Positions 8,617 to 30,778 of a DNA stretch of 64,000 nt are shown here, piece by piece; within the stretch, counting starts at the first letter, position 1, and each line of letters begins with the position of its first letter. Source of the DNA: Candidatus Nomurabacteria bacterium (GTDB lineage: Bacteria > Patescibacteriota > Saccharimonadia > Saccharimonadales > HK-STAS-PATE-42). The stretch lies in assembly GCA_023898665.1 (NCBI GenBank), contig CP060233.1, positions 420,368-484,367 on the forward strand. Reading direction: 5' to 3'. Position numbers and translations under genes: made by a program. Below the pieces are notes generated by a model. It worked only from the letters and a program-made list of their open reading frames with translations. It ran no database searches and had not been told where the DNA came from.

Positions 8617-8692
8617 TGGTCGGGGTGATAGGACTTGAACCTACGACCTCACGGTCCCAAACCGCGCGCGCTACCAACTGCGCCACACCCCG
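8617..8692 (-). tRNA. tRNA-Pro (anticodon TGG), CCA encoded
   Basis: Reverse complement is CGGGGTG..GCGC AGTTGGT AGCGC..CGCGG TTTGGGA CCGTG..GTAGG TTCAAGT CCTAT CACCCCG A CCA. Cloverleaf folded by hand. Confidence 0.9.
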
Positions 8693-9242: not shown

Positions 9243-10496
9243 CTAAGCTCTTTTTAAGAGTAGTTCAAAATATTTTGTACTACCGAAAGGTATTTTTTGC
9301 TTAACTAAACTTTTACCAGGTAAAGAATTGGCCGAACAGATCGTAAAATTACCAAACTTGTCATTTATTTCATCAACAGCTTGTGTTAACCACTCGGCTT
9401 TATTAACTTCTTCGAATATCCCAACCTGATTTCTGTTTGATGGCTCTAGCTTATAGCAAGTGATAGACATCTGCTTGATTTCTTCATTCTTTGGTCTTTG
9501 ATTTATTAAATATAGAGCTCTTCTATAAACTTCTTGGTCGGTATAAAAGCTTGACTTATACATTTTACGTTTAACCCAGTATTCTCCACTTTGTAAATGT
9601 AAGGCAACCATAACTCCTCGGGCGCACTTATTGTTATAGCGTAGTTTTTGCGCGGTTGTCTCACATAAATAATGGAAACACGGTAAAATGTATTTTTCTT
9701 CTTTTGAAGTTTGTCCTAGAACCCATTGTCTCCCTACTTGCCCGAGTTTAGTTGGTTTATCGTCTACTTCATAACCTTTTAGACGTTTGTACCAGTACTC
9801 TCCTACGATGCTATGGAAGACTTGCCTTCTTAAAAAGTCTGGACCTGCTCTGTAAAAATCTAAAACGGTAAATATGCCAACGGCATTAAGTCTAGCCTGA
9901 TAATGCAGGGCTATACCAGTTAAGTCAGTTAGTTCTATTTGTTTGTAGTAGTTAATAAGATTGTCGTGATTTAAGATATCTAGCCCGTCTGGTTTGTGCC
10001 ACCCGGCAGCTTGTTTGGCTAAAAATCTGTTTGTGCCAATTCCAATATTAATTTTCATCCAGCAACCAAGCTCTTTTTTAACTTGTTCTTTAATCTCTAG
10101 ACCTATCTCTTCTAGGGATCTAGTGTTAACTCCTCTGGTGCCGTTAAAGTCGATAATGCCTTCATCGATGCTCTTCATCTCGACATTAGGAGAGTAGCTT
10201 TTCATGATTTTAATTAACTTTTGGTAGACGAAGTTATATTTGGGTGGATCAGTTTCTAGGATAATAAAGTCGGGGTAAATCGCTCTTGCATCTGTTAAGC
10301 TCATACCTACTTTGATGCCAAGAGCTTTGGCCTCGTAAGAGCAGGCTATAACGCAGCAGTGTTTAGATATTCTGTTTGTCACACCCATTGGTTTGCCACG
10401 TAGGCTTGGTCTAGCCTGCTGCTCAGTGGTGGCAAAGGCACTATTGAGATCAATATGCATGATCTGTGGTTCATCTTGATTAATTGATAATTGCAT
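9243..10496 (-). CDS. dinB: Y-family DNA polymerase (DinB/Pol IV-like)
   Basis: 417 aa. MHIDLNSAFATTEQQARPSLRGKPMGV corresponds to the DxDxFYAS.E catalytic N-terminus. SIDEG and palm/finger/little-finger-length architecture are present. Confidence 0.8.
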   Translation of the reverse strand: MQLSINQDEPQIMHIDLNSAFATTEQQARPSLRGKPMGVTNRISKHCCVIACSYEAKALGIKVGMSLTDARAIYPDFIILETDPPKYNFVYQKLIKIMKSYSPNVEMKSIDEGIIDFNGTRGVNTRSLEEIGLEIKEQVKKELGCWMKINIGIGTNRFLAKQAAGWHKPDGLDILNHDNLINYYKQIELTDLTGIALHYQARLNAVGIFTVLDFYRAGPDFLRRQVFHSIVGEYWYKRLKGYEVDDKPTKLGQVGRQWVLGQTSKEEKYILPCFHYLCETTAQKLRYNNKCARGVMVALHLQSGEYWVKRKMYKSSFYTDQEVYRRALYLINQRPKNEEIKQMSITCYKLEPSNRNQVGIFEEVNKAEWLTQAVDEINDKFGNFTICSANSLPGKSLVKQKIPFGSTKYFELLLKRA

Positions 10497-10519: not shown

Positions 10520-10861
10520 TTGCTTATGATTAGGGATGTACTAGTTAATATATTTGAGGTTAAGCCTTTGCCTATAAACTCTACTATCTTCCCCGCTGAC
10601 TTTGAACTTGCGAAAAAGCGGCGGAATTATCTTAGTGCTATATCAGTGGCCTTGGGAGCTGCTAGCTTACTCTGGGCAAATAGGTATGGCCTTGGTGATG
10701 GTTTAGATATCCTTGCTTCTGAGATGTCTTTTGCTGCTAGTATGGCTAATGCAGTTAATTCTCATGCGGTAGCTAAATATGGCAGGTATCTAAAGGCTGA
10801 GGACTTCTACGAGGGTCCAGGTCAATCCTCCAGCGTCGAACTCGAGCCGGTAGTCGTTTAA
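10520..10861 (+). CDS. hypothetical protein (uncertain; its 3' end overlaps the convergent gene by 72 nt)
   Basis: 113-aa ORF with one hydrophobic segment. The last ~24 codons are antisense to the conserved C-terminus of the 88-aa gene. Confidence 0.3.
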   Translation: MLMIRDVLVNIFEVKPLPINSTIFPADFELAKKRRNYLSAISVALGAASLLWANRYGLGDGLDILASEMSFAASMANAVNSHAVAKYGRYLKAEDFYEGPGQSSSVELEPVVV

Positions 10862-11056
10862 GCCATCTGACATATCAAAGACATGGATCATTCTTTGGCC
10901 TTTTGAGGTTGGATGTCTTAAGCCTAGCTCTTTAAAGACTACTTCTTTTTCTTTCCACCGCATTTTGTGCGGAAAACATAATGTTTGTATATCTCCCTTT
11001 GCTCTAAATGAGCAGATTACATCGACTCGTTGATCAACTTTCTGTATTGTTTTCAT
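10790..11056 (-). CDS. small conserved hypothetical protein, paralog A (88 aa)
   Basis: Colinear with ORF 14651..14920, about 27% identity by hand alignment with one gap. Shared positions: M.T.QK....V.V...F.........C.P..M......V.F......VFD..D....YRL.F....L.W.L..V. A GGAGG SD lies 10 nt before the ATG. Confidence 0.65.
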   Translation of the reverse strand: MKTIQKVDQRVDVICSFRAKGDIQTLCFPHKMRWKEKEVVFKELGLRHPTSKGQRMIHVFDMSDGLNDYRLEFDAGGLTWTLVEVLSL

Positions 11057-11123
11057 ACTGTTAAGGCCTCCATTGGTTAAAGAGTTAATTTTAAGACGAA
11101 CGTGTGGCGTTTTTTGCCGATCT

Positions 11124-11142
11124 GGAGGTGATAACAGTGACC
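11124..11142 (-). promoter_or_regulatory. conserved leader box GGTCACTGTTATCACCTCC (anti-SD candidate) upstream of paralog A
   Basis: The same box (GGTCACTGTTAATCCTCCC) occurs in the leader of paralog B. Here ACTGTTA..CCTCC is complementary to GGAGG..TAACAGT, which abuts the ATG (11057-11071). Confidence 0.5.
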
Positions 11143-11343
11143 TAGGTGTGTATCCCTAAAATAAAAATCTTATAAAGGCTACTAACTAAACCTTAAGTAA
11201 AAAATAGGAGTGCTAGTATGTCTCAATGTTTAGTATAGCAAAAGTTAGGTAACTATATGAGCAATGCTAGTAAAATATCGACTGAGTGATTTTAAGTGGC
11301 TCATACTTTGAATATTAAGTAAGTTTATTGTGCTATTGAAGTA

Positions 11344-12291
11344 CTAGTTCCCTATTAAGACCAGTGAGTTACTTAACCCTTTATATGTTTTATAGTGTCG
11401 ATTTGATAAGAGTGAGTTAGATATAACTTTTTTGATTAGTTCATCTGTAAATCGTCTTGACCTTAGTAGTAATATTTCTGAACCAGATTCAATTATTGTA
11501 TCTTTATTATTGTGGTGTATCCTAAGGGTTTGTTTAGTCTTTGCTTTTATTTCCACCTCTTGATTCTTCTCGTTCCAGCTAACACTTGGGTCTGATAGGC
11601 GAATGCCTATTCTTTTAGCTGTTGAACATACAAGTTTAAGCTCTTCTTTTAAGGAGTAGGATATTAAGAGAGAATCTTTGATGTCTGGTTGATAATTAGC
11701 TAAACCAATGAGGATTAAATCTGACTTGCTAGCCAGTTGCATCACATTGTTAAGTATTTTGCTAGGATCTTTGTAGTTACCAAGTGAGTTCCCTAGAATC
11801 ATTACCAAATTGATGTAGTAAGGCTTCAACCCTTCTCTGAGCTTAGTTAGATCGTCTTTTTCAAAGTCCATAATATATACTTCAGTACTTATAGCTTTTA
11901 TTTTTTTATCTATATTATTTTTGGCCAGAGATGCCATCTCTTTGCTTATATCAACTGCAGTGTATGTAACCTGAACATTCTGTTCAAGTATTTCTTGTAA
12001 TATATCCTTCGCTGTTAATCCATTACCACATCCTATATCTATGATATTAATTCCTTTAACGCCCCGCTGAATCACGGACGCTATAGCGTTGTCTAAATTC
12101 TTCTTGATAAGAGTGTTCTCATCTGATGTATTGATATTTAACATCGACCATTTTTTACTTAGTGCATCCCAGTACTTAGCACCTTCCCCTAAATAAGAGT
12201 ACTTACTCAGGATTTCCGATTCTTTAGACAGTGAGTTGTATAGATCTTCTTCACTTATGACGACGTTCTTCATAGCTCTAGAGTATAGCAA
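11344..12291 (-). CDS. class I SAM-dependent methyltransferase (EgtD/Methyltransf_33-like layout)
   Basis: 315 aa. SAM motif I is IIDIGCGNG, followed by VDIS, ILGNSLGNY and a long C-terminal substrate domain, as in histidine-specific methyltransferase-type enzymes. The subfamily is inference. Confidence 0.6.
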   Translation of the reverse strand: MLYSRAMKNVVISEEDLYNSLSKESEILSKYSYLGEGAKYWDALSKKWSMLNINTSDENTLIKKNLDNAIASVIQRGVKGINIIDIGCGNGLTAKDILQEILEQNVQVTYTAVDISKEMASLAKNNIDKKIKAISTEVYIMDFEKDDLTKLREGLKPYYINLVMILGNSLGNYKDPSKILNNVMQLASKSDLILIGLANYQPDIKDSLLISYSLKEELKLVCSTAKRIGIRLSDPSVSWNEKNQEVEIKAKTKQTLRIHHNNKDTIIESGSEILLLRSRRFTDELIKKVISNSLLSNRHYKTYKGLSNSLVLIGN

Positions 12292-12475
12292 AACTCCTAC
12301 TTTAACAGATGTTGATTAAATACTTATGCTTGGCAGAGACTCACGTACCCTATCCAAACTTTTTGAGGAGGTGGTTGAGTTGCCTGATGAGTGCAATCAG
12401 ACACTGGTTAAGACTAAAGATATAATAGTTAATCCACAAAAGAAGTTTATCGTGGGGTTGAGGTACTAGCTTTTG

Positions 12476-13177
12476 CTATGAATGGCTTCTAAAAACTAGG
12501 GCGTGTTGGTCATAACCATCGCTAGAACTAGCTTTCAATACACCTTTTACTTTGGGATTTCTACTTAATTCTTTACCTATTCTAGTTATCTCAGGATTAT
12601 CGTAAACATCAGCCAGTAAGTACGGAATTTGCAGAAAGGCTACTCCTCCTGGCTTTAACAAGTCTACTATGACCTGGGCTGCTCCAGAGTAAAATCTCGT
12701 AGGTAAGTACTGTAGACCGCCCACTGGCCTATGTAGAATTAAATCAAAGCCTCCGTTGGTATTTAAACTTGCCCATTCTATTATTTTTTGCCAGGTATCC
12801 CGATGCACTAAGTTTCCAGCAATATGATCTACAAGTGGGTTATACCTTGAAGCGGGGCATCTTCGGTCCTCGTAGTTTGTCAGCAGGCCCTTTCCTATGG
12901 CACCAATATCAATTAAGTCTTGTAGGGCAGCTCCGTTGCTCCCTCCTGCAAGATCCATCGCAGTATTAGAAGTGTCTTTGCCAATTATTTTTGTGACTAC
13001 TCCAGGCCCTCGTCCTAAGCCAGGGAAATGAACATTAAAGAAGTAGCTGGATAGTCCAGAATCATTTACTGTCCACTCTCCATCTCCGCATTCATCTAAG
13101 AACTCTGCTTCCAAGGGCGTTTGTTTTATTCCGTCTAGAAAGGAAAGAGATGGGGCGGAGTGTTGATCAGAGGGCAT
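12476..13177 (-). CDS. hypothetical protein, possible class I methyltransferase fold (GC-elevated)
   Basis: 233 aa. MDLAGGSNGAALQDL (motif I-like), FDLILHRP and LLKPGGVAFLQ (motif III-like). Hand count of 12841-12900 gives 53% GC. Confidence 0.4.
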   Translation of the reverse strand: MPSDQHSAPSLSFLDGIKQTPLEAEFLDECGDGEWTVNDSGLSSYFFNVHFPGLGRGPGVVTKIIGKDTSNTAMDLAGGSNGAALQDLIDIGAIGKGLLTNYEDRRCPASRYNPLVDHIAGNLVHRDTWQKIIEWASLNTNGGFDLILHRPVGGLQYLPTRFYSGAAQVIVDLLKPGGVAFLQIPYLLADVYDNPEITRIGKELSRNPKVKGVLKASSSDGYDQHALVFRSHS

Positions 13178-13197
13178 AGGACACTTCTTAAGGCTGA

Positions 13198-13827
13198 CTA
13201 CCCTTCTTTTGGCTTGATGGTCACAGGCCCAACTGGTCCGAGTACTACGCCTGACGGTAGAGCTCTCCTGAGACGGTCAATTACTGCTTGGTCAAAAAGT
13301 TCTAGGTCTCCAGCGAAAGCTGCAAACTTTAGTTTTTGGTAAGGGTGAGATTGCCTAAAGGTTGTGGGCAACCCTAGCATATCGCGTATGGCGGTCTTCT
13401 CCCCTTCCATAAGATGTCCAGCTGGGTACATTGATGTCTCTATGTCTCTAAGTTTAATGTCCATACGTATCTTTCCAGTATCTGGGTGTGTAAAGAAGCT
13501 TAAAGATGCGTCAGAAGGATCTATGTAGCCAGTCGATGCTATACCTCCTAGCTTGCCTGTATTGGTTAGATGATCTAAGACTGCTTGAGTGCTAGCCTTA
13601 AATAGTTCCCCCCTCTCTTCGTCTGTGGTATCTGGCAGATGTGGGGCTAGATCTTTGTCTGGCACATATCTTACCGCTGGAGCATCAATTAAGGCTATGT
13701 GTAGGCCAGAAGGGAGCTCTTGAGTGAATCTTCCTATGGCTTCGGCACACCACACATCTCGACCTACTCGACCGATAGCGTATTGATTCTGGAAGGTACT
13801 CACCGTTTCTAAATCTGTCATAATCAT
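13198..13827 (-). CDS. hypothetical protein (GC-elevated, no recognised family)
   Basis: The long ORF 13198..13872 probably starts at an ATG at 13827 or 13821, just after a TGTTATTAT extended -10 box. Hand count of 13201-13260 gives 57% GC. Confidence 0.45.
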   Translation of the reverse strand: MIMTDLETVSTFQNQYAIGRVGRDVWCAEAIGRFTQELPSGLHIALIDAPAVRYVPDKDLAPHLPDTTDEERGELFKASTQAVLDHLTNTGKLGGIASTGYIDPSDASLSFFTHPDTGKIRMDIKLRDIETSMYPAGHLMEGEKTAIRDMLGLPTTFRQSHPYQKLKFAAFAGDLELFDQAVIDRLRRALPSGVVLGPVGPVTIKPKEG

Positions 13828-14101
13828 CCTATATAATAACATCTTTAGGATAAAAGAGCAAACGTATACCATAGGCTGTGAGCCGAAGAATTATGGTTGT
13901 GTGACGTACCTCAACAGAGTAGCTCTACTTTTGAGTATCACTAAAAGTTGTCAAGGGTTAGGATGATCTTGTCCCACCGCGATTATTCTTCTCGAACTTT
14001 TCTGTATTAGCTCCTGTTTAAGGCAATAAACATGGGTCGAGAGTAACCTTAGAACTGAAAAAACACTGGTCTGGGTTCGTAAAAAATAATGAATTCCTCT
14101 C

Positions 14102-14178
14102 TGGCAGGGGTGATAGGACTCGAACCTACGACACCCGGTTTTGGAGACCGGTGCTCTAGCCAACTGAGCTACACCCCT
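14102..14178 (-). tRNA. tRNA-Trp (anticodon CCA), CCA end encoded
   Basis: Reverse complement is AGGGGTG..GCTC AGTTGGCTA GAGC..CCGGT CTCCAAA ACCGG..GTAGG TTCGAGT CCTAT CACCCCT G CCA. Confidence 0.9.
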
Positions 14179-14192
14179 CTACCTAAGAACTA

Positions 14193-14201
14193 ATTATAAC
14201 A
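14193..14201 (-). promoter_or_regulatory. extended -10 promoter TGTTATAAT for tRNA-Trp
   Basis: Minus strand reads CTGTTATAAT 14 nt upstream of the tRNA 5' end. Confidence 0.6.
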
Positions 14202-14212
14202 GTTAAAAGAAT

Positions 14213-14593
14213 TTACTGAACAGTTACTCCTGTAAATTTGTATTTTTGGAAGATTAAGATCTTACCATTTTTAACCGCTGAGGCTTTAAGATTAACTGCT
14301 TCGTCTTTTACGTTAAAGCATCTTAAGTTAGCTTCTTTCCCAGTTTCTGTACTTATAATTCCTCCTTTTAACTCACAGTCTCTAAGCCCATTAAGCTTAG
14401 CGGCAGTCTCGGCATTTTCGGTTTGGCCAGATTCTTTTAAGCCTTTATTTACAGCAGAAGTTATCCAGCTATTTTGTGCCCATGATTTTCCAAATACTAC
14501 CCCAAAAACAAATATTAAGATGATAATGGCTAAGATAATTAGTTTCTTCATGAATTTGAACATTGTTTGATTGATTAAGCTTAAGTCTAACAT
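14213..14593 (-). CDS. small exported/membrane-anchored hypothetical protein
   Basis: 126-aa ORF with signal-anchor MKKLIILAIIILIFVFGVVFG. The antisense ORF 14238..14570 looks like noise. Confidence 0.5.
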   Translation of the reverse strand: MLDLSLINQTMFKFMKKLIILAIIILIFVFGVVFGKSWAQNSWITSAVNKGLKESGQTENAETAAKLNGLRDCELKGGIISTETGKEANLRCFNVKDEAVNLKASAVKNGKILIFQKYKFTGVTVQ

Positions 14594-14650
14594 AAAAAAC
14601 CTCTTTTTTGAGGAGGTTTAGTTATGTAAGCATAAGATTATTGATTAATT

Positions 14651-14920
14651 TTATGTACTTTTTAGCCCAACTGAGTCTAGTAACCAGCTTAGGTTGTCTA
14701 TATTAAAAATTAATCGGTATCTTCTTGTTTGGTCAAATAGGTCAAAGACTCTTCTTTCGCTGTCAGATTGGTCGGCATAGTTTATTCTAAATTTGTTGAA
14801 GGTGACCTGGTTCCCGCGGAACTCCATCTCTACCGGTTCGCAGATGAATCCTCCAGCATCCTCGTCTTCGAAGCGAGCTTTTACTTTTACTTGTTCGTTG
14901 ATTTTTTGTGCTGTGCTCAT
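14651..14920 (-). CDS. small conserved hypothetical protein, paralog B (89 aa)
   Basis: Paralog of 10790..11056 (see that entry). It is preceded by a 387-nt non-coding leader. Confidence 0.65.
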   Translation of the reverse strand: MSTAQKINEQVKVKARFEDEDAGGFICEPVEMEFRGNQVTFNKFRINYADQSDSERRVFDLFDQTRRYRLIFNIDNLSWLLDSVGLKST

Positions 14921-15130
14921 AGTATCTTACCTTTCGTAAATTAAATTTGTTAAGTAATTTGATTCCTAAACTTGAACTTATCTATTGTTGGGAAAGGAGA
15001 TGGCTTATTAATTAGAGAAGTTTTTTAGAAAGCAAAAACAGCCTGACGGTTATTTATCAAACTTTTAATTTTGCGCTTCTTGGCTCCTAAAAGCTTAGGC
15101 TGCTTCTCCGAGCACTAGAGAAACTCTTTC

Positions 15131-15149
15131 GGGAGGATTAACAGTGACC
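15131..15149 (-). promoter_or_regulatory. conserved leader box GGTCACTGTTAATCCTCCC upstream of paralog B
   Basis: About 16-17 of 19 positions are shared with the box at 11124..11142 (one-base indel), same orientation relative to the paralogous genes. Confidence 0.45.
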
Positions 15150-15307
15150 GTAAACTTACTGTAAGTTTTGGTATATTTCCTCTATCTCTTTTTGTTAATA
15201 AGCCTACAAGCTAAAAGTTTAACTAGTGCTTGTATCGCTAGATATAATTATAGACCTCAAAGAGCTTATGTTTCTAGTAGGTTTTGTTGTCTTTTGTGCT
15301 ACAATGT

Positions 15308-15904
15308 TTAGTCGTTCTTTACTAGTCCAACATGCTGAGCATAGCAGGCTCCGCAAAGAGACTCGTAGGCTATATCCATTGAAGACCCATCGATAGCAAC
15401 TTGGTCTCCCTCGAGCACAAACTCTCCATTGATTTTACGCCCATTAAATATTGCGTTGCTACCACAGCGACAAACAGTCCTTATCTCTTTAATTACGTGA
15501 GCTATTTCAAGTAGTCGTGTTGATCCTGGAAACCCCCGGGTTCTAAAGTCCCCCCTTAAGCCGTAGGACATAACTGGTATACCTGGATCTAAGGTTAGGG
15601 CAAAGAGTTGGTCTATTTGGTCAGGACTAAAGAATTGAGCTTCATCGGCAAATATACAGCCTATAGGTTCTCCTCCTACATGTTCTGGAATAGCTTGCCA
15701 AAGATCCATGTCTGGCGTAGCTACAAGATCTACCATCCTATCTATACCGACTCTGGAGGTTACCTTGTTTTCTCCCTTAGTGTCTGTACCAGGTTTGACT
15801 AGAAAGGGTTTCATTCCAATCTCTTCATAATTGTGTGCTGCCCTAAGTAGTTCTATGGTTTTGCCGCTGTTCATTGCCCCGTAGTGAAAGTATAGTTTAG
15901 CCAT
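15308..15904 (-). CDS. tdk: thymidine kinase
   Basis: P-loop YGAMNSGKT, FADEAQFF, and C-terminal zinc ribbon CRCG...CGAC. The start is taken at ATG 15904 (MAKLYFHYG), preceded by TGCTAAACT plus 7 nt. Confidence 0.9.
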   Translation of the reverse strand: MAKLYFHYGAMNSGKTIELLRAAHNYEEIGMKPFLVKPGTDTKGENKVTSRVGIDRMVDLVATPDMDLWQAIPEHVGGEPIGCIFADEAQFFSPDQIDQLFALTLDPGIPVMSYGLRGDFRTRGFPGSTRLLEIAHVIKEIRTVCRCGSNAIFNGRKINGEFVLEGDQVAIDGSSMDIAYESLCGACYAQHVGLVKND

Positions 15905-15929
15905 ATGTTTAAGTTTAGCAAAAAAAACT

Positions 15930-16436
15930 CTAGTTTTCTGGTTGCATACCATAGGCCTTTTCGTAATCTGTGATGCCGCTATCTAAGCATTTTGAAAAGT
16001 TTCTGAGAATACCGATATTACCACCTCTTTTATTCTCAGCCTTTGAATCTTCAATAACTTTAATCTGTGTTTTTAGCTCGTTTTTGTCACCTTTAAGAAA
16101 TGCAATTGTTCCGTTTACGTAGGCGTTCCAGCATTCCTTTTCATTTTCATAGCTTTTCTGAAAGCATTCAATGGCATCTTTGTAAAATTTAGTTCCGGCG
16201 TATCCAAAAGATTGGCCAGCGTGAAAGTAGAGTAAGTCAATTGGAAGGACTTCGCCACCAACTTTTCCTTTATTGTATTCATCAATTTTATTACCGCTAA
16301 GCTTAATGTATTGGAGAATTAGCTCAGCAATGTGTTCTTCACTTACTTCTCCAACTAATGATCTCCAGCCGTTAACAGCTTGATCAAATTCAACAGGATC
16401 CATCTCTAGGAACTTGCAATATCTTTTTTCTAACAT
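15930..16436 (-). CDS. hypothetical protein (helical, TPR-like?)
   Basis: 168-aa ORF with no recognised family. Confidence 0.45.
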   Translation of the reverse strand: MLEKRYCKFLEMDPVEFDQAVNGWRSLVGEVSEEHIAELILQYIKLSGNKIDEYNKGKVGGEVLPIDLLYFHAGQSFGYAGTKFYKDAIECFQKSYENEKECWNAYVNGTIAFLKGDKNELKTQIKVIEDSKAENKRGGNIGILRNFSKCLDSGITDYEKAYGMQPEN

Positions 16437-16505: not shown

Positions 16506-16945
16506 TGGTGGAGCTGGCGGGAACTGCCCCCGCGTCCGATTAGTTAACTGATTGAATACTTTTCAACATGCTTATTTTTTCTTATTTTTTACGTTTAAAG
16601 AAGCTAAAGAAAAAAGAAAAATCTAAAATAAACGACGCTTTTCAAAGTTTAAATCTTAATGTAAGAAGCGTTACTCTTCGATCAAGATCGAGCCAGAAAT
16701 AATATGACATCTTAAACTCTCGAAAGCCTGGCAAAAGAGAATAAGATGGCAAGCCTAAAATTTAGGCTGCTAGTGCGTAATCAGCTTTAAGAATTGCGAT
16801 ATTCTCGCGGATTCTTGCAGCGACTTCGCTAACTTTACTGTTTGCAGTTAAGTTGTCTTGCCCTGTAACGGTGAGCACACCCGACATGCATACACTCAAT
16901 CTGTTAAAGTTCTATCCGTCTAGATGCTAAAAATGCTTCAGCCCC
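16506..16945 (-). ncRNA. ssrA: tmRNA (SsrA)
   Basis: 5' GGGGCTG pairs with 3' CAGCTCC-A-CCA, including the G3:U70 alanine identity pair. T-arm is GCGGG/CCCGC. An internal ORF starting GCAAAC ends in ...KADYALAA-TAA. The 5' TAGACGGA resembles the conserved TTCGACGGG. Confidence 0.85.
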
Positions 16946-19283: not shown

Positions 19284-20132
19284 ATGACAACAGATAAGCT
19301 ACCTGATACTAATAATACTGATTTTGAAAAAAAAGATGTTAATCCTCCTCAACATAGTTCATCGGAGCAAGTTATAAAAGATTCTAGTATAGAATCACGG
19401 TCTCATGGTTTTAAAAAGCTCAAGTTTATTCCTGAAAGTAACAGTACCAAAGTAATTTATTTGGTAGCAGGATTTGTTGGACTGATATTAATACTTCTGT
19501 TAATTCTTATGCTAAGCGGTGGTGGGTCATCCAATAAAAAAGTTAATCAGAAATCAGATCCTGTAGTTATTAAAGATCTCGAAGCAAATAATAACAGTGA
19601 AGGATACGTTGATTCGGCTCCAGCAAACTTTGGCGAATTTAGCCTTAATCTCAACTTTTCTCAGCCAGAACTAATAAAGTCGCAATTATCTGAAGTAAAC
19701 TTAGGTCAACAGGTATCTTGGCAAGATGGTTTTGCCATTCTAGCTGCTTCCGTCGACCGTGATTATCGCCCTGCTTCTGAGTACGATTATAAAAAGGTTG
19801 CTGAAGCAGGAGATGAATTCGTAAGAGTAAATTTTTTGGTTGGTAACGCCTCCTATAATAATATGAATATCGGATATGATGACTTGGCGTTATATGCTGA
19901 AGGAGCTGGTTTAAAGAAAACCGAACCGGAACGGATGTCTGACGATACTTATTCACCTAGAGATGGGCAAATTTTAGGAGGTAAACAAACTCAGAAAATA
20001 TCGTTACATTTCAGGGTGAAGAGAGGGCAATCTTTTTATATAACAAAGTCAAAATCTTTTACTCAAAATAACGCTAAAGTTAAGAATGGTGAGGAGAAAA
20101 AACCTATATTAACTTTAAGGATAAATCTATAA
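19284..20132 (+). CDS. membrane-anchored hypothetical protein (DUF4352-like Ig-fold C-terminal domain?)
   Basis: 282 aa with TM helix VIYLVAGFVGLILILLLILML. The C-terminal beta-rich domain pattern is reminiscent of DUF4352; the assignment is tentative. Confidence 0.4.
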   Translation: MTTDKLPDTNNTDFEKKDVNPPQHSSSEQVIKDSSIESRSHGFKKLKFIPESNSTKVIYLVAGFVGLILILLLILMLSGGGSSNKKVNQKSDPVVIKDLEANNNSEGYVDSAPANFGEFSLNLNFSQPELIKSQLSEVNLGQQVSWQDGFAILAASVDRDYRPASEYDYKKVAEAGDEFVRVNFLVGNASYNNMNIGYDDLALYAEGAGLKKTEPERMSDDTYSPRDGQILGGKQTQKISLHFRVKRGQSFYITKSKSFTQNNAKVKNGEEKKPILTLRINL

Positions 20133-28721: not shown

Positions 28722-30778
28722 TTTAAGTATTCTAAATCTTGGTGTTTAGCAATGTTAGCTCTGAGCTCGGTACTCAGGGCTAACTTGTCTTTTACAATAC
28801 TGATGGCCGCTTCTCTTGCTTGGTTAATTAATTTTGTGTCGTTTATGTCAATTAACCTTAAGTCTAGGGCTCCTGATTGTAGCTTACCGTATACCTGGCC
28901 AGGACCCCGCATCTCGAGGTCGTATTGTGCTAACTTAAAGCCATCTGAATTATCTGTAAAATATCTAAGCCTAGCAGGTATGCCATCGTTTTTAGCTGGC
29001 ACTAAATAGCAATAACTTGGCAGATTTGACCTTCCTACTCTACCTCTAAGCTGATGTAGTTGAGCAAGACCAAAATATTCCGCTCCTTCAATAACTATTA
29101 AGGTGGCTCTTGGGATATCTATACCGACCTCTATTACAGTTGTAGAGACTAAAGTATTAATTTTACCCGATGCAAAATCTAACATTATTTGGTCTTTATC
29201 ATCTGACTTTAGTTTTCCGTGAAGAAGACCTAAACCATGTTTTTTTATCCAAGCTTTTCTTGAGAGTTCTTCATAAACTTTAGCTGTTGATACTCTTGCA
29301 GAGTTCTCAGTATCTGTAATGTTTGGGCAGACGAAGATTGCGGCATGGTTTAAACTTAGTTCTTCTTTTAGTTTGTCCCAAACTTTTTGTTTAGAGGCAC
29401 CCGGAATTAGTTCTGTTTGTATTTCTATTCTGCCTAGTGGTTTAGTTCTAATCATACTCTGCTCCAGTTCTCCATAAAGCATAAGAGCTAATGAACGGGG
29501 GATTGGTGTTGCCGTCATTGTCAGTAAATGAGGAAATTTGCCTTCCCCTACTCTTTTTTGGAGTTCTTTACGCTGGTTAACACCAAACCTATGTTGTTCA
29601 TCTACAATAACGAAGGAAAGATCCTTAAACTTAACCTTTTGTTGAATTAAAGCATGAGTTCCTACTATAAACTTGGTTGAGCCATCTTCAATTTTATTTA
29701 AAAGTTCGGTTTTTTGTTTTGGTTTAAGTGAGCCAACTAGTAGGTCAACTTTTTGGTTAAAGTTAGAAAGTAAAGTAGTAAAGCTTTTTGCGTGTTGAGT
29801 GGCAAGGACTTCTGTAGGTGCTAAAACTGTCACTTGTTTCCCTGCTTTAATTGCCTGCAGTGATGCTATTGCGGCTATGACGGTTTTTCCGGAGCCTACA
29901 TCACCCATTAGCATTCTATTCATTGGCTCGTCTTTTTCTAGATCCTTTAGAATTTGCCAGGCTGCAGCTCTTTGTTCATCTGTAAGTTTAAACTTAAGTG
30001 ACTTTACAAGTTCTTTTGTGTCTTCTAGATTGAACTTAATTTTTGGAGATGTAAGTTTTTGGATAAACTCTTTGTTTTTTTGAACAGCTAGTTGGAGAGT
30101 CAAAACCTCTTCAAAAGCTAATCGTTTTTTTGCAAGATTGAGAGACTCCATAGATTGTGGCATATGGAGTTGCCACAAAGCCTCATTTTTTGGGATTAAT
30201 TTATACTCATCTAATATCTCTTGCGGTAATACTTCTTTTATTTCTTTTGCTACTTGCTCAATCTGTATCAATAAACTTCTTATTAAGCTTGAGCTTAGAT
30301 TACTTTTTTCAGGGTAAACTGGGATTATTCTTGCTGTATTTGATTGGTTCTTGTCTGATTTTACTGGCTCTACAGAAGGATTAGTTAAGTTTAACCTACC
30401 CGAGCTAACTTTAAAATCTCCTGATATATAATACTTCTCATCAGTTTTAAAACTATTTAATCTATATGGCTGATTGAACCAAACTACAGGCATTCTATCA
30501 CCTTTATCATCTTCTACAACTGCTTCTGTGAGATGCATTGCACGACCTCTAGCCCAACGACCCTTGATATTTATTATTGATACTTTTAAGGTCACTAAAC
30601 CGGGTTTAATTTTTTTTATATAGCCTATATTTGAGTAATCTACGTAGCGTCTTGGCCAATAGTCCAGTAGGTCCGCAATAGTATTTAGGTCAACATCTTG
30701 TAGTTGTTTATATTTAGCTGGACCTACCCCATTTAGCTCATCCAATCTAGAGCTTATACTTAACTTTTTTTTACTCAT
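28718..30778 (-). CDS. recG: ATP-dependent DNA helicase RecG
   Basis: 686 aa. Wedge/OB N-terminal domain, helicase motifs GDVGSGKT, DEQHRFGV, MTATPIPR and QLRGRVGR. Confidence 0.9.
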   Translation of the reverse strand: MSKKKLSISSRLDELNGVGPAKYKQLQDVDLNTIADLLDYWPRRYVDYSNIGYIKKIKPGLVTLKVSIINIKGRWARGRAMHLTEAVVEDDKGDRMPVVWFNQPYRLNSFKTDEKYYISGDFKVSSGRLNLTNPSVEPVKSDKNQSNTARIIPVYPEKSNLSSSLIRSLLIQIEQVAKEIKEVLPQEILDEYKLIPKNEALWQLHMPQSMESLNLAKKRLAFEEVLTLQLAVQKNKEFIQKLTSPKIKFNLEDTKELVKSLKFKLTDEQRAAAWQILKDLEKDEPMNRMLMGDVGSGKTVIAAIASLQAIKAGKQVTVLAPTEVLATQHAKSFTTLLSNFNQKVDLLVGSLKPKQKTELLNKIEDGSTKFIVGTHALIQQKVKFKDLSFVIVDEQHRFGVNQRKELQKRVGEGKFPHLLTMTATPIPRSLALMLYGELEQSMIRTKPLGRIEIQTELIPGASKQKVWDKLKEELSLNHAAIFVCPNITDTENSARVSTAKVYEELSRKAWIKKHGLGLLHGKLKSDDKDQIMLDFASGKINTLVSTTVIEVGIDIPRATLIVIEGAEYFGLAQLHQLRGRVGRSNLPSYCYLVPAKNDGIPARLRYFTDNSDGFKLAQYDLEMRGPGQVYGKLQSGALDLRLIDINDTKLINQAREAAISIVKDKLALSTELRANIAKHQDLEYLN

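Follow-up and report, generated by a model that had tools for sequence, protein, structure and literature searches.

The minus strand of a 64,000-nucleotide (nt) stretch of DNA from a Candidatus Nomurabacteria bacterium of the class Saccharimonadia (contig CP060233.1, positions 420,368 to 484,367; hereafter the window) carries a small gene, A (10790..11056), whose 88-amino-acid (aa) product is predicted to be all-beta and whose upstream RNA leader is the subject of this analysis. Downstream on the same strand lies the gene of a Y-family DNA polymerase (9243..10496) with IMS domains (Pfam PF00817 and PF11799), which is closest to Pol IV/DinB models and matches the NCBIfam Pol IV models below their trusted cut-offs. 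A first-pass annotation of the window had described, ahead of gene A, a conserved 19-nt box able to sequester the Shine-Dalgarno (SD) sequence and start codon of the gene. The element proved four to five times larger than the span drawn there, and it heads a DNA-polymerase operon. A paralog of gene A, gene B (14651..14920, minus strand; 89 aa, 30% identical to A in alignment), has a leader of its own.

Homologs of the 88-aa protein number at least 727, all of them unannotated and from Saccharimonadia; a sensitive profile search added 325 representatives. The protein had no match in Pfam, NCBIfam, PHROGs, PDB sequences or Foldseek-PDB. The structural model presented an all-beta fold (per-residue confidence score, pLDDT, of 87.8), and the conserved basic residues are R10, K31, R47, H48, R55, H58 and R70. 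In 77 of 78 loci, the polymerase gene comes next after the small gene in the same orientation (median gap, 1.5 nt); the genes upstream of the leader vary between loci. This gap measures at most 30 nt in 63 of 78 other loci and about 290 nt in the window and a few close relatives, where an antisense open reading frame (ORF) lies in between; co-transcription of gene A and the polymerase is therefore less certain in this genome. The ORF in question (10520-10861, plus strand, 113 aa) occupies the spacer, overlaps the 3' end of gene A in antisense orientation and has a 40%-identical relative only in locus L081. A distant, profile-level relative of the small protein (L214:284-698) overlaps the start of a Y-family polymerase (MHIDLNSCFAT...) and is preceded by a gap of about 115 nt that holds no leader. 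As the two genes are thus paired outside the leader-bearing lineages as well, the partnership of protein and polymerase appears to predate the leader. The uncharacterized all-beta family is thereby flagged as the constant partner of the Y-family polymerase, including in the one leaderless distant relative examined.

The 19-nt box GGTCACTGTTATCACCTCC (11142..11124, minus strand) is made up of the 3' half of the apex and internal loop of a hairpin termed H1 (GGUCAC), the H1 3' strand UGUUAUCACC, and UCC; within it, AUCACCUCC resembles an anti-SD sequence. The 15 nt preceding the ATG at 11056, GGAGGCCTTAACAGT (11071..11057, minus strand), form part of a translation-initiation region (TIR) that was assigned from sequence and fold and reads U GGAGG CCU UAACAGU AUG (11054..11072, minus strand). 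The coordinates and sequences of both segments had been given exactly in the first-pass annotation. When 11040-11200 (minus strand) or the full leader (11225..11030) was folded with RNAfold, the minimum-energy structure contained the box-to-SD helix proposed there, consisting of 7 base pairs (bp; ACUGUUA:UAACAGU), a 3x3 internal loop and a further 5-6 bp (CCUCC(A):(U)GGAGG), and the enclosed loop measured 52 nt as described. The anti-TIR strand in this helix, ACUGUUA UCA CCUCCA (11123..11138, minus strand), overlaps the H1 3' strand and pairs with 11072..11057. GGAGG was found upstream of only one other ORF in a crude set of 68 ORFs, in agreement with the view that this is one of the few strong SD sequences in the window.

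In the full leader of gene A, the box-to-SD pairs had probabilities of 0.8-1.0, the probability of an unpaired SD was 0.001, and this pairing dominated the predicted fold of the entire leader. The overall stability of the 161-nt fragment 11040-11200 was unremarkable (z = -1.16). For the duplex between anti-TIR strand and start region, the calculated energy was -18.3 kcal/mol, with z = -6.1 relative to shuffled versions of the start region; no segment of the whole leader was a better partner of the start region than the anti-TIR strand. The sequestered state was modelled at -32.7 kcal/mol, versus -27.0 kcal/mol with H1 enforced (a difference of 5.7 kcal/mol), and H1 alone was weak (-4.1 kcal/mol). 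The modelling thereby shows the sequestering helix as the predicted ground state of the window copy. No terminator-like site was found between 11343 and 11057, which argues against an attenuator based on an intrinsic terminator. In a few orthologs (L006 and L002), a hairpin followed by a U-run was observed 3' of the pseudoknot described below.

With up to three mismatches allowed, the 19-mer GGTCACTGTTATCACCTCC occurs once in the window, and its core GGTCMCTG occurs exactly twice, at the leaders of genes A and B. A third TCACTGTTA at 19592-19600 was attributed to chance as it does not contain the core and lies antisense in a coding region. The core GGTC[A/C]CTG recurs on the coding strand upstream of orthologous genes at variable distances, with compensatory flanks (e.g., AGGAacGCA...UGCgaaUCCU versus AGGUgGCA...UGCCaACCU), which identifies the box as the 3' side of the H1 apex plus the H1 3' strand. 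The box is thus conserved as the first-pass annotation had stated, but what preserves its invariant part, GGUCMCUG, is hairpin formation with a strand further upstream (11156..11147, minus strand) and not pairing with the SD.

Hairpin H1 (11127..11156, minus strand) was delineated by the covariation of both parts of its stem across the family. In the window copy, it has a lower stem (GG/CC and GAU(A)/(U)AUC), a middle stem (ACA/UGU), an asymmetric internal loop (C in its 5' strand, CAC in its 3' strand), and an apical mini-hairpin, AC[CUAG]GU. Across the family, the apparent 12-nt loop resolves into a mini-hairpin AC[UNCG]GU atop an asymmetric internal loop (1 nt 5', C(A/C)C 3'), and the apex of other loci carries a UNCG-type loop or a longer hairpin instead of the tetraloop. 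Within the clade of the window, one H1 pair varies between A-U, G.U and G-C. The common apex ACUCCGGUCC (e.g., L024:2364-2374; window 11147-11137) was also considered as the reverse complement of GGACCGGAGU, which we take to be the 3' half of the 23S ribosomal RNA sarcin-ricin loop; this likeness is probably a coincidence, as the fourth position of the apex varies freely among loci.

H1 is one domain of a longer leader. From promoter to ATG, the aligned loci present a TATAAT-like -10 element, a 5' hairpin a few nt later, a short U-rich spacer, H1, an A-rich linker, a helix H2 (4 bp, a 1x1 mismatch and 4 bp) that encloses conserved junctions and a variable hairpin H3, the strand AAAUCCGUUC, and the start region. 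The canonical H3 loop carries GAACGG, to which AAAUCCGUUC pairs across H2, creating a pseudoknot of six pairs. Leader length is 150-250 nt, H1 lies 50-150 nt from the start codon, and the H2/H3 pseudoknot domain is present in most lineages. The TATAAT-like hexamer keeps a constant distance 5' of the 5' hairpin in 42 orthologous loci irrespective of the upstream gene. In the window, a putative extended -10 element, TGCTATACT (11232..11240, minus strand), was recognized at this position and was not listed by a generic promoter scan; the transcript of gene A would start about 6-8 nt downstream. The 5' hairpin of the window copy (AGAC-A-UACUAGC ... GUUAGUA-GCCU, then UUUAU; 11175..11224, minus strand) was identified by a covariance model match and the minimum-energy fold. 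A K-turn in the internal loop of the 5' hairpin (CAUGAG/CCAUCG) was rejected, as the second strand has no tandem G.A.

Copy A has neither H2 nor the pseudoknot and retains a small hairpin and a CGUUC remnant. The hairpin, GGC-AAAAAAC-GCC (11106..11118, minus strand), stands in the 52-nt loop where the first-pass annotation had placed one of GGC-A7-GCC type, except that its loop is A6C, so that A7 was an approximation. A CGGC...GCCA stem with variable loops is found in L081, L082 and L084, and by inferred homology the hairpin is probably a remnant of H3 of the full-length leader. The segment CACGUUCG (11097..11104, minus strand), for which L082 has CCCGUUA, could weakly be read from position and similarity as a remnant of the pseudoknot 3' strand.

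To follow the leader beyond the window, 80 genomic loci of 88-aa homologs from Saccharimonadia were fetched, and a seed of leaders annotated by hand was realigned with covariance models. Alignment of 23 leaders by MAFFT followed by RNAalifold recovered the GAACGG:CCGUUC helix alone, because indels break the register of the other helices. Two covariance models were used, R1 (H1 and H2) and R2 (5' hairpin and H1), the latter built without the window or its clade. R1 matched 63 of the 80 loci, invariably on the coding strand and upstream of the gene; its score around the small hairpin of copy A was weak (13.6 bits, E 0.93) because copy A lacks H2 and the pseudoknot. R2 matched 65 of the 80 orthologous loci, both window copies (copy A, 11126-11225, 26.0 bits, E 1.5e-4; copy B, 15133-15241, 30.3 bits, E 9e-6; E-values of both models are rough) and their close relatives. 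By one model or the other, the leader was detected in 71 of the 80 A-type loci.

In the R1 alignment, 93.5% of cells were paired versus 77.6% after shuffling and at most 46% with slid partners, and compensatory changes were seen at 16 of 19 pairs. The corresponding values for R2 were 88.3%, 74.1% and at most 42%, with compensatory changes at 16 of 18 pairs; within the 5' hairpin, all 10 modelled pairs (72 sequences) showed such changes. In the R1 alignment, the pseudoknot was 94% paired although R1 does not include it, and four of its pairs had changed on both sides. The covariation that the first-pass annotation had suggested looking for is hence present at most modelled pairs, in a structured and covarying fold like that of a riboswitch aptamer.

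In a side result, R2 also matched 30381-30464 of the window (plus strand, 20.2 bits, E 0.006). This match lies inside a 686-aa ORF of the opposite strand and contains no GGUCMCUG core; as a third leader it is probably false. A metagenome scan with CANACTNCGGTCCCTG gave at least 120 matches, and among those listed 118 were chance matches in unrelated GC-rich contigs, which swamped any other gene contexts of the leader. Eight contigs carrying the operon (L014, L036, L040, L050, L051, L061, L072 and L080) sit in metagenome-assembled genomes labelled as other phyla (Ectothiorhodospiraceae, Ktedonobacterales, Bacteroidales, Acidimicrobiia, Burkholderiales, Actinomycetota and Acidoferrum); these Saccharimonadia-type contigs are probably mis-binned.

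The sequence directly 5' of the ATG is not conserved among orthologs, where TAACAGT is absent, and the pairing with the start site was followed instead by complementarity. In the closest relatives of copy A, the box always ends in CACCUC(C/U/A) and a matching SD follows (e.g., CACCUCCA:UGGAGGUG in L084), and in L087 (CACCUCU:AGAGGUG) a C-to-U change is compensated by G-to-A. The pairing claimed for the window therefore holds in its relatives for the CACCUC(C) arm, which is kept in L081, L082, L084 and L087, but the 7-bp ACUGUUA:UAACAGU arm is specific to the window and absent from its nearest relatives. Neither of the outcomes that the first-pass annotation had named as speaking against its proposal, a pairing neither conserved nor covarying or a helix disfavoured by folding, was observed.

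Across all lineages, the H1 3' strand and the next ~24 nt were paired with the start region (-20 to +3) in model coordinates. Own start regions gave a mean of -11.4 kcal/mol versus -8.2 kcal/mol for foreign ones, and none of 5000 permutations reached the observed mean. Contiguous helices of at least 10 bp (10-14 pairs) were found in 19 of 62 loci (31%), compared to 4% in the control. A helix of at least 8 bp was present in 28 of 57 loci; it spans the SD zone in every one of them and extends to the AUG in 12. In 22 of these 28 loci, the anti-TIR strand begins 0-15 nt (mostly 0-6) 3' of H1, and in the other six it overlaps the H1 3' strand; overlap was seen in L006, L075, L018 and L068 and also in the window clade, and abutment elsewhere. 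In 15 of 57 loci, this position held the best partner of the start region (binomial p = 8e-5). The complementary strands differ in sequence among at least 12 lineages, with CACCUCC in the window clade, CUGAUCCUAAC:GUUAGGAUCAG in L075, AUCUAAACAACC:GGUUGUUUAGAU in L016, CAUAUACAAACC:GGUUUGUAUAUG in L034, UUACUCCAA:UUGGAGUAA in L060 and AUCCUUAA:UUAAGGAU in L018; helices reach 13 bp in L067 (CAUAUUCAAACAC, AUG included) and L006, and 14 bp in L002. Pairing of the start site is thus alternative to, or coupled with, the aptamer-like fold, as in an expression platform. Some of the loci without a strong helix have long leaders, and these may use a different start codon or mechanism.

The leader of gene B (15133..15241, minus strand) was located by the R2 match and comprises a 5' hairpin (ACAAGC/GCUUGU), GGCUUAUUAAC and an H1 with a long 5' bulge, preceded by a -10 element TATAAT (15252..15247, minus strand). 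Box B, GGTCACTGTTAATCCTCCC / GGUCACUGUUAAUCCUCCC (15131..15149, minus strand), is the sole other copy of the box in the window and has 11 exact nt in common with box A, plus CCTCC after an indel; outside the box, the two leaders gave no MAFFT alignment. Sequestration does not extend to this paralog: UCCUC of box B pairs with an upstream GAGGA (15182..15178) and not with the SD of gene B, which is weak and whose start codon lies about 215 nt away, and the duplex of box B with the start region reached only -5.2 kcal/mol (z = -0.45). A complement of GGCUUAUUAAC (15204..15194), AUUAAUAAGCC, is located downstream (15002..15012, minus strand), and this long-range pairing is kept in B-type leaders. 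The corresponding blocks GCUUAUUAACAAA and UUUGUUAAUAAGC (13 nt, ~170 nt apart, enclosing H1; L089-L093 and window 15002-15204) occur in six of six B leaders with invariant sequences, so covariation is uninformative for them. In most B leaders, the H1 core is replaced by another hairpin, GAGACUCUCC...GGGAGUUUC, and these leaders look like a distinct sub-class. R2 matched all five B-type loci elsewhere, 215-340 nt upstream of the ATG. Neighbours of the B relatives include thymidine kinase, 3-methyladenine glycosylase and deoxynucleotidase genes, and in L092 the gene order is B, an 89-aa gene, polymerase. A thymidine kinase gene (15308-15952) is also found upstream of gene B in the window, as in several B-type loci.

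The leader does not correspond to a catalogued RNA. Scans with Rfam 15 (4227 families) returned only three transfer RNAs (tRNAs) and the transfer-messenger RNA (tmRNA) across the whole window at gathering thresholds, nothing credible in either leader at E<=10 (10700-15400), and no leader match in 13 orthologous loci at E<=1, which bears out the earlier impression that the leader matches no known riboswitch class. Literature searches yielded no description of a structured RNA for Y-family polymerase genes. The only catalogued candidate found to be specific to TM7/Saccharibacteria is the lysM-TM7 motif, a cis-regulatory RNA candidate with a lysM context and an Rfam family (Weinberg et al. 2017, PMC5737381); the gene context of the present leader differs, and the lysM-TM7 model was unmatched in the window and the 13 orthologous loci. 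The leader is a previously undescribed cis-regulatory RNA family that uses a known principle, characterized by conserved, covarying structure, a start-site-sequestering helix at or next to H1, and strict association with the small-protein/polymerase module.

We give about even chances to the leader being a multi-domain 5' RNA that acts in cis to impose effector-gated, default-OFF translational control on this operon. The start site would by default be locked by the anti-TIR strand, a state suited to a mutagenic polymerase. The sensor fold, made up of H1, its invariant internal loop, the adjoining strand and, in lineages that have it, the pseudoknot domain, would be stabilized by an effector and would then withdraw the anti-TIR strand so that ribosomes could load. 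In the window copy, this would be direct competition, since the anti-TIR strand is the H1 3' strand, and ~6 kcal/mol would have to be supplied; in the abutting arrangement, the folded sensor would have to capture the linker. An ON switch is favoured, as no other sign is compatible with both the overlapping and the abutting arrangement. As the effector, we incline to a riboswitch-like signal of DNA damage or nucleotide-pool stress, be it a small molecule or a cellular factor, rather than to a protein encoded by the operon; the ON logic, the biology of mutagenic polymerases and a pseudoknotted domain rich in junctions speak for it. In its most specific and decidedly tentative form, for which we see a limited chance, the leader would be an orphan riboswitch class confined to Saccharimonadia, in which a DNA-damage or nucleotide-pool metabolite (e.g., a damaged base or nucleoside, a dNTP-related metabolite (dNTP, deoxynucleoside triphosphate) or an alarmone) switches on translation of the translesion polymerase and its partner.

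The closest precedents for such a switch are translational ON riboswitches such as the Vibrio vulnificus add adenine riboswitch, in which the anti-SD strand is common to aptamer and expression platform. The leader shares with these a covarying sensor in the 5' untranslated region, a strand in or abutting a sensor helix that is complementary to the SD or AUG, a sequestered ground state and, in the window copy, two mutually exclusive pairings. It differs in having no known ligand, in structures outside Rfam 15 (the 5' hairpin, H1 with its UNCG cap and CMC bulge, and the H2/H3 pseudoknot), in domains that are lost or replaced in some lineages, and in preceding a polymerase operon rather than genes of metabolism or transport.

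Several observations weigh against an effector-gated ON switch. Effector and switching are both hypothetical, and thermodynamic modelling alone gives no demonstration of SD release: with H1 enforced, the model of leader A re-pairs the SD with another segment instead of freeing it, and H1 was not the ground state in ViennaRNA, transcription intermediates included. A sequestering helix of at least 8 bp is found in only about half of the loci; the start codons rest on homology and could be misplaced where the leader is long. In the 22 of 28 loci whose anti-TIR strand abuts H1, release through H1 stabilization would need a hypothetical tertiary capture of the linker. The element is modular, with the pseudoknot domain or the H1 apex missing in some lineages and the GUCMCUG core absent from most B-type leaders, which is more plasticity than is typical of small-molecule aptamers. 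Fitting an alignment to a model biases it towards the modelled structure, and kinship among sequences inflates shuffle tests; the pseudoknot pairing and the detection with the clade left out are more independent evidence. Lastly, association with a single protein family has the look of an autogenous operator.

That alternative, in which the 88-aa protein or the polymerase binds the conserved H1 internal loop beside the sequestering helix and thereby acts on its own operon, repressing or tuning translation, is a serious rival, kept by the single-family association and the plastic domains, and we regard it as possible though not probable. The leader was found with this one protein family only (71 of the 80 A-type loci and all five B-type loci), with or without an adjacent Y-family polymerase, as some of the B loci have none, and its core occurs nowhere else in the window, so restriction to the operon is as expected of an autogenous leader. 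Leader variants follow the protein subfamily, with conserved features particular to the B type, the domains are highly plastic, the small protein has conserved basic residues, and a bound protein could clamp the sequestering helix in the 22 of 28 loci where H1 adjoins it. Phage T4/RB69 gp43 DNA-polymerase operators and the ribosomal-protein leaders of S15 and L20 are likewise hairpins with a conserved loop near the start of the messenger RNA (mRNA) of a nucleic-acid enzyme, restricted to one operon and varying in structure by lineage. By contrast, the present leader is 150-250 nt long with several domains and a pseudoknot, and its H1 lies well upstream of the start codon. No RNA-binding fold or family was recognizable in the small protein, which is not decisive. 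Against repression, the leaders of the window clade, L006 and L075 can form either H1 or the sequestering helix but not both, so that a protein bound to H1 would activate there, amounting to an unusual positive feedback; moreover, the distant relative of the protein sits beside the same type of polymerase without a leader.

A constitutive structural leader, which would stabilize the mRNA and hold translation of a mutagenic polymerase permanently low with neither effector nor switching, is unlikely. It would agree with the 5' hairpin starting a few nt from the inferred transcript start, like known 5' stabilizers, with the sequestered state being the predicted ground state, and with no effector being known. 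Attenuation of this kind, however, needs no invariant internal loop, UNCG cap, conserved junctions or compensated six-pair pseudoknot.

The start-site pairing described in the first-pass annotation is real and matches no known class; of the mechanisms offered there (riboswitch expression platform, RNA thermometer or protein-titrated operator), the thermometer is disfavoured. An RNA thermometer, with an SD helix that melts as temperature rises, would share with ROSE and fourU elements a leader that pairs the SD, here up to the AUG and through a helix with an internal loop. In the model, the probability of an unpaired SD in leader A stayed at 0.001 at 20, 30, 37 and 45 °C, the sequestering helices, which run to 10-14 contiguous pairs in 19 of 62 loci, have a length and stability ill suited to melting, and large, conserved sensor-like domains upstream would be superfluous, so we consider a thermometer very improbable. 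Chance complementarity is likewise disfavoured. The least credible of the rival mechanisms is a DNA operator bound by a repressor such as LexA, which would suit translesion polymerases as a classically LexA-controlled class (PMC8565304) and the ACTGTTA...TAACAGT inverted repeat with its CTGT/ACAG, as the arms lie 52 nt apart, TAACAGT is missing from orthologs, the motif is confined to the coding strand 3' of the -10 box, the stems covary without sequence conservation, and no GAAC-N4-GTTC (LexA box) occurs in the window.

Translesion polymerases are normally tightly regulated, with LexA/SOS transcriptional control of dinB and umuDC as the reference case (PMC8565304). The present operon belongs to the same gene class and would likewise be off by default, whereas its control lies in RNA, as judged by compensatory pairs, strand specificity and a position downstream of the promoter, with no palindromic DNA operator. 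Through this leader, which has dozens of confirmed representatives and no entry in Rfam, a translesion operon would gain an additional, post-transcriptional level of control. Error-prone translesion polymerases are mutagenic, and LexA-type transcriptional repression is their main restraint in the bacteria studied so far. The leader would also provide a defined, testable regulatory RNA in Patescibacteria, whose gene regulation is almost uncharted. If the effector is a metabolite, the leader would be a new orphan riboswitch, unusual in the genes that it accompanies, and if it is the protein, a new autogenous operator of a repair-polymerase module; should the orphan-riboswitch reading be true, ultrasmall episymbiotic bacteria would possess an RNA-based, LexA-independent damage response.

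Among the surrounding features, a GC-richer island (12476-13872; profile 12600-13800, 0.45-0.49 versus a background of 0.37) lies between paralogs A and B beside a tRNA gene (14105-14178, minus strand). Its two ORFs, of 233 and 224 aa, have no Pfam match, and the island may have been acquired horizontally. Rfam also placed tRNA genes at 8620-8692 and 2336-2409 and the tmRNA at 16506-16920, all on the minus strand. Downstream of gene B, a 126-aa ORF (14213-14593, minus strand) gave weak matches to Rz-like spanin and DUF2514 (E ~2e-3 to 8e-3).

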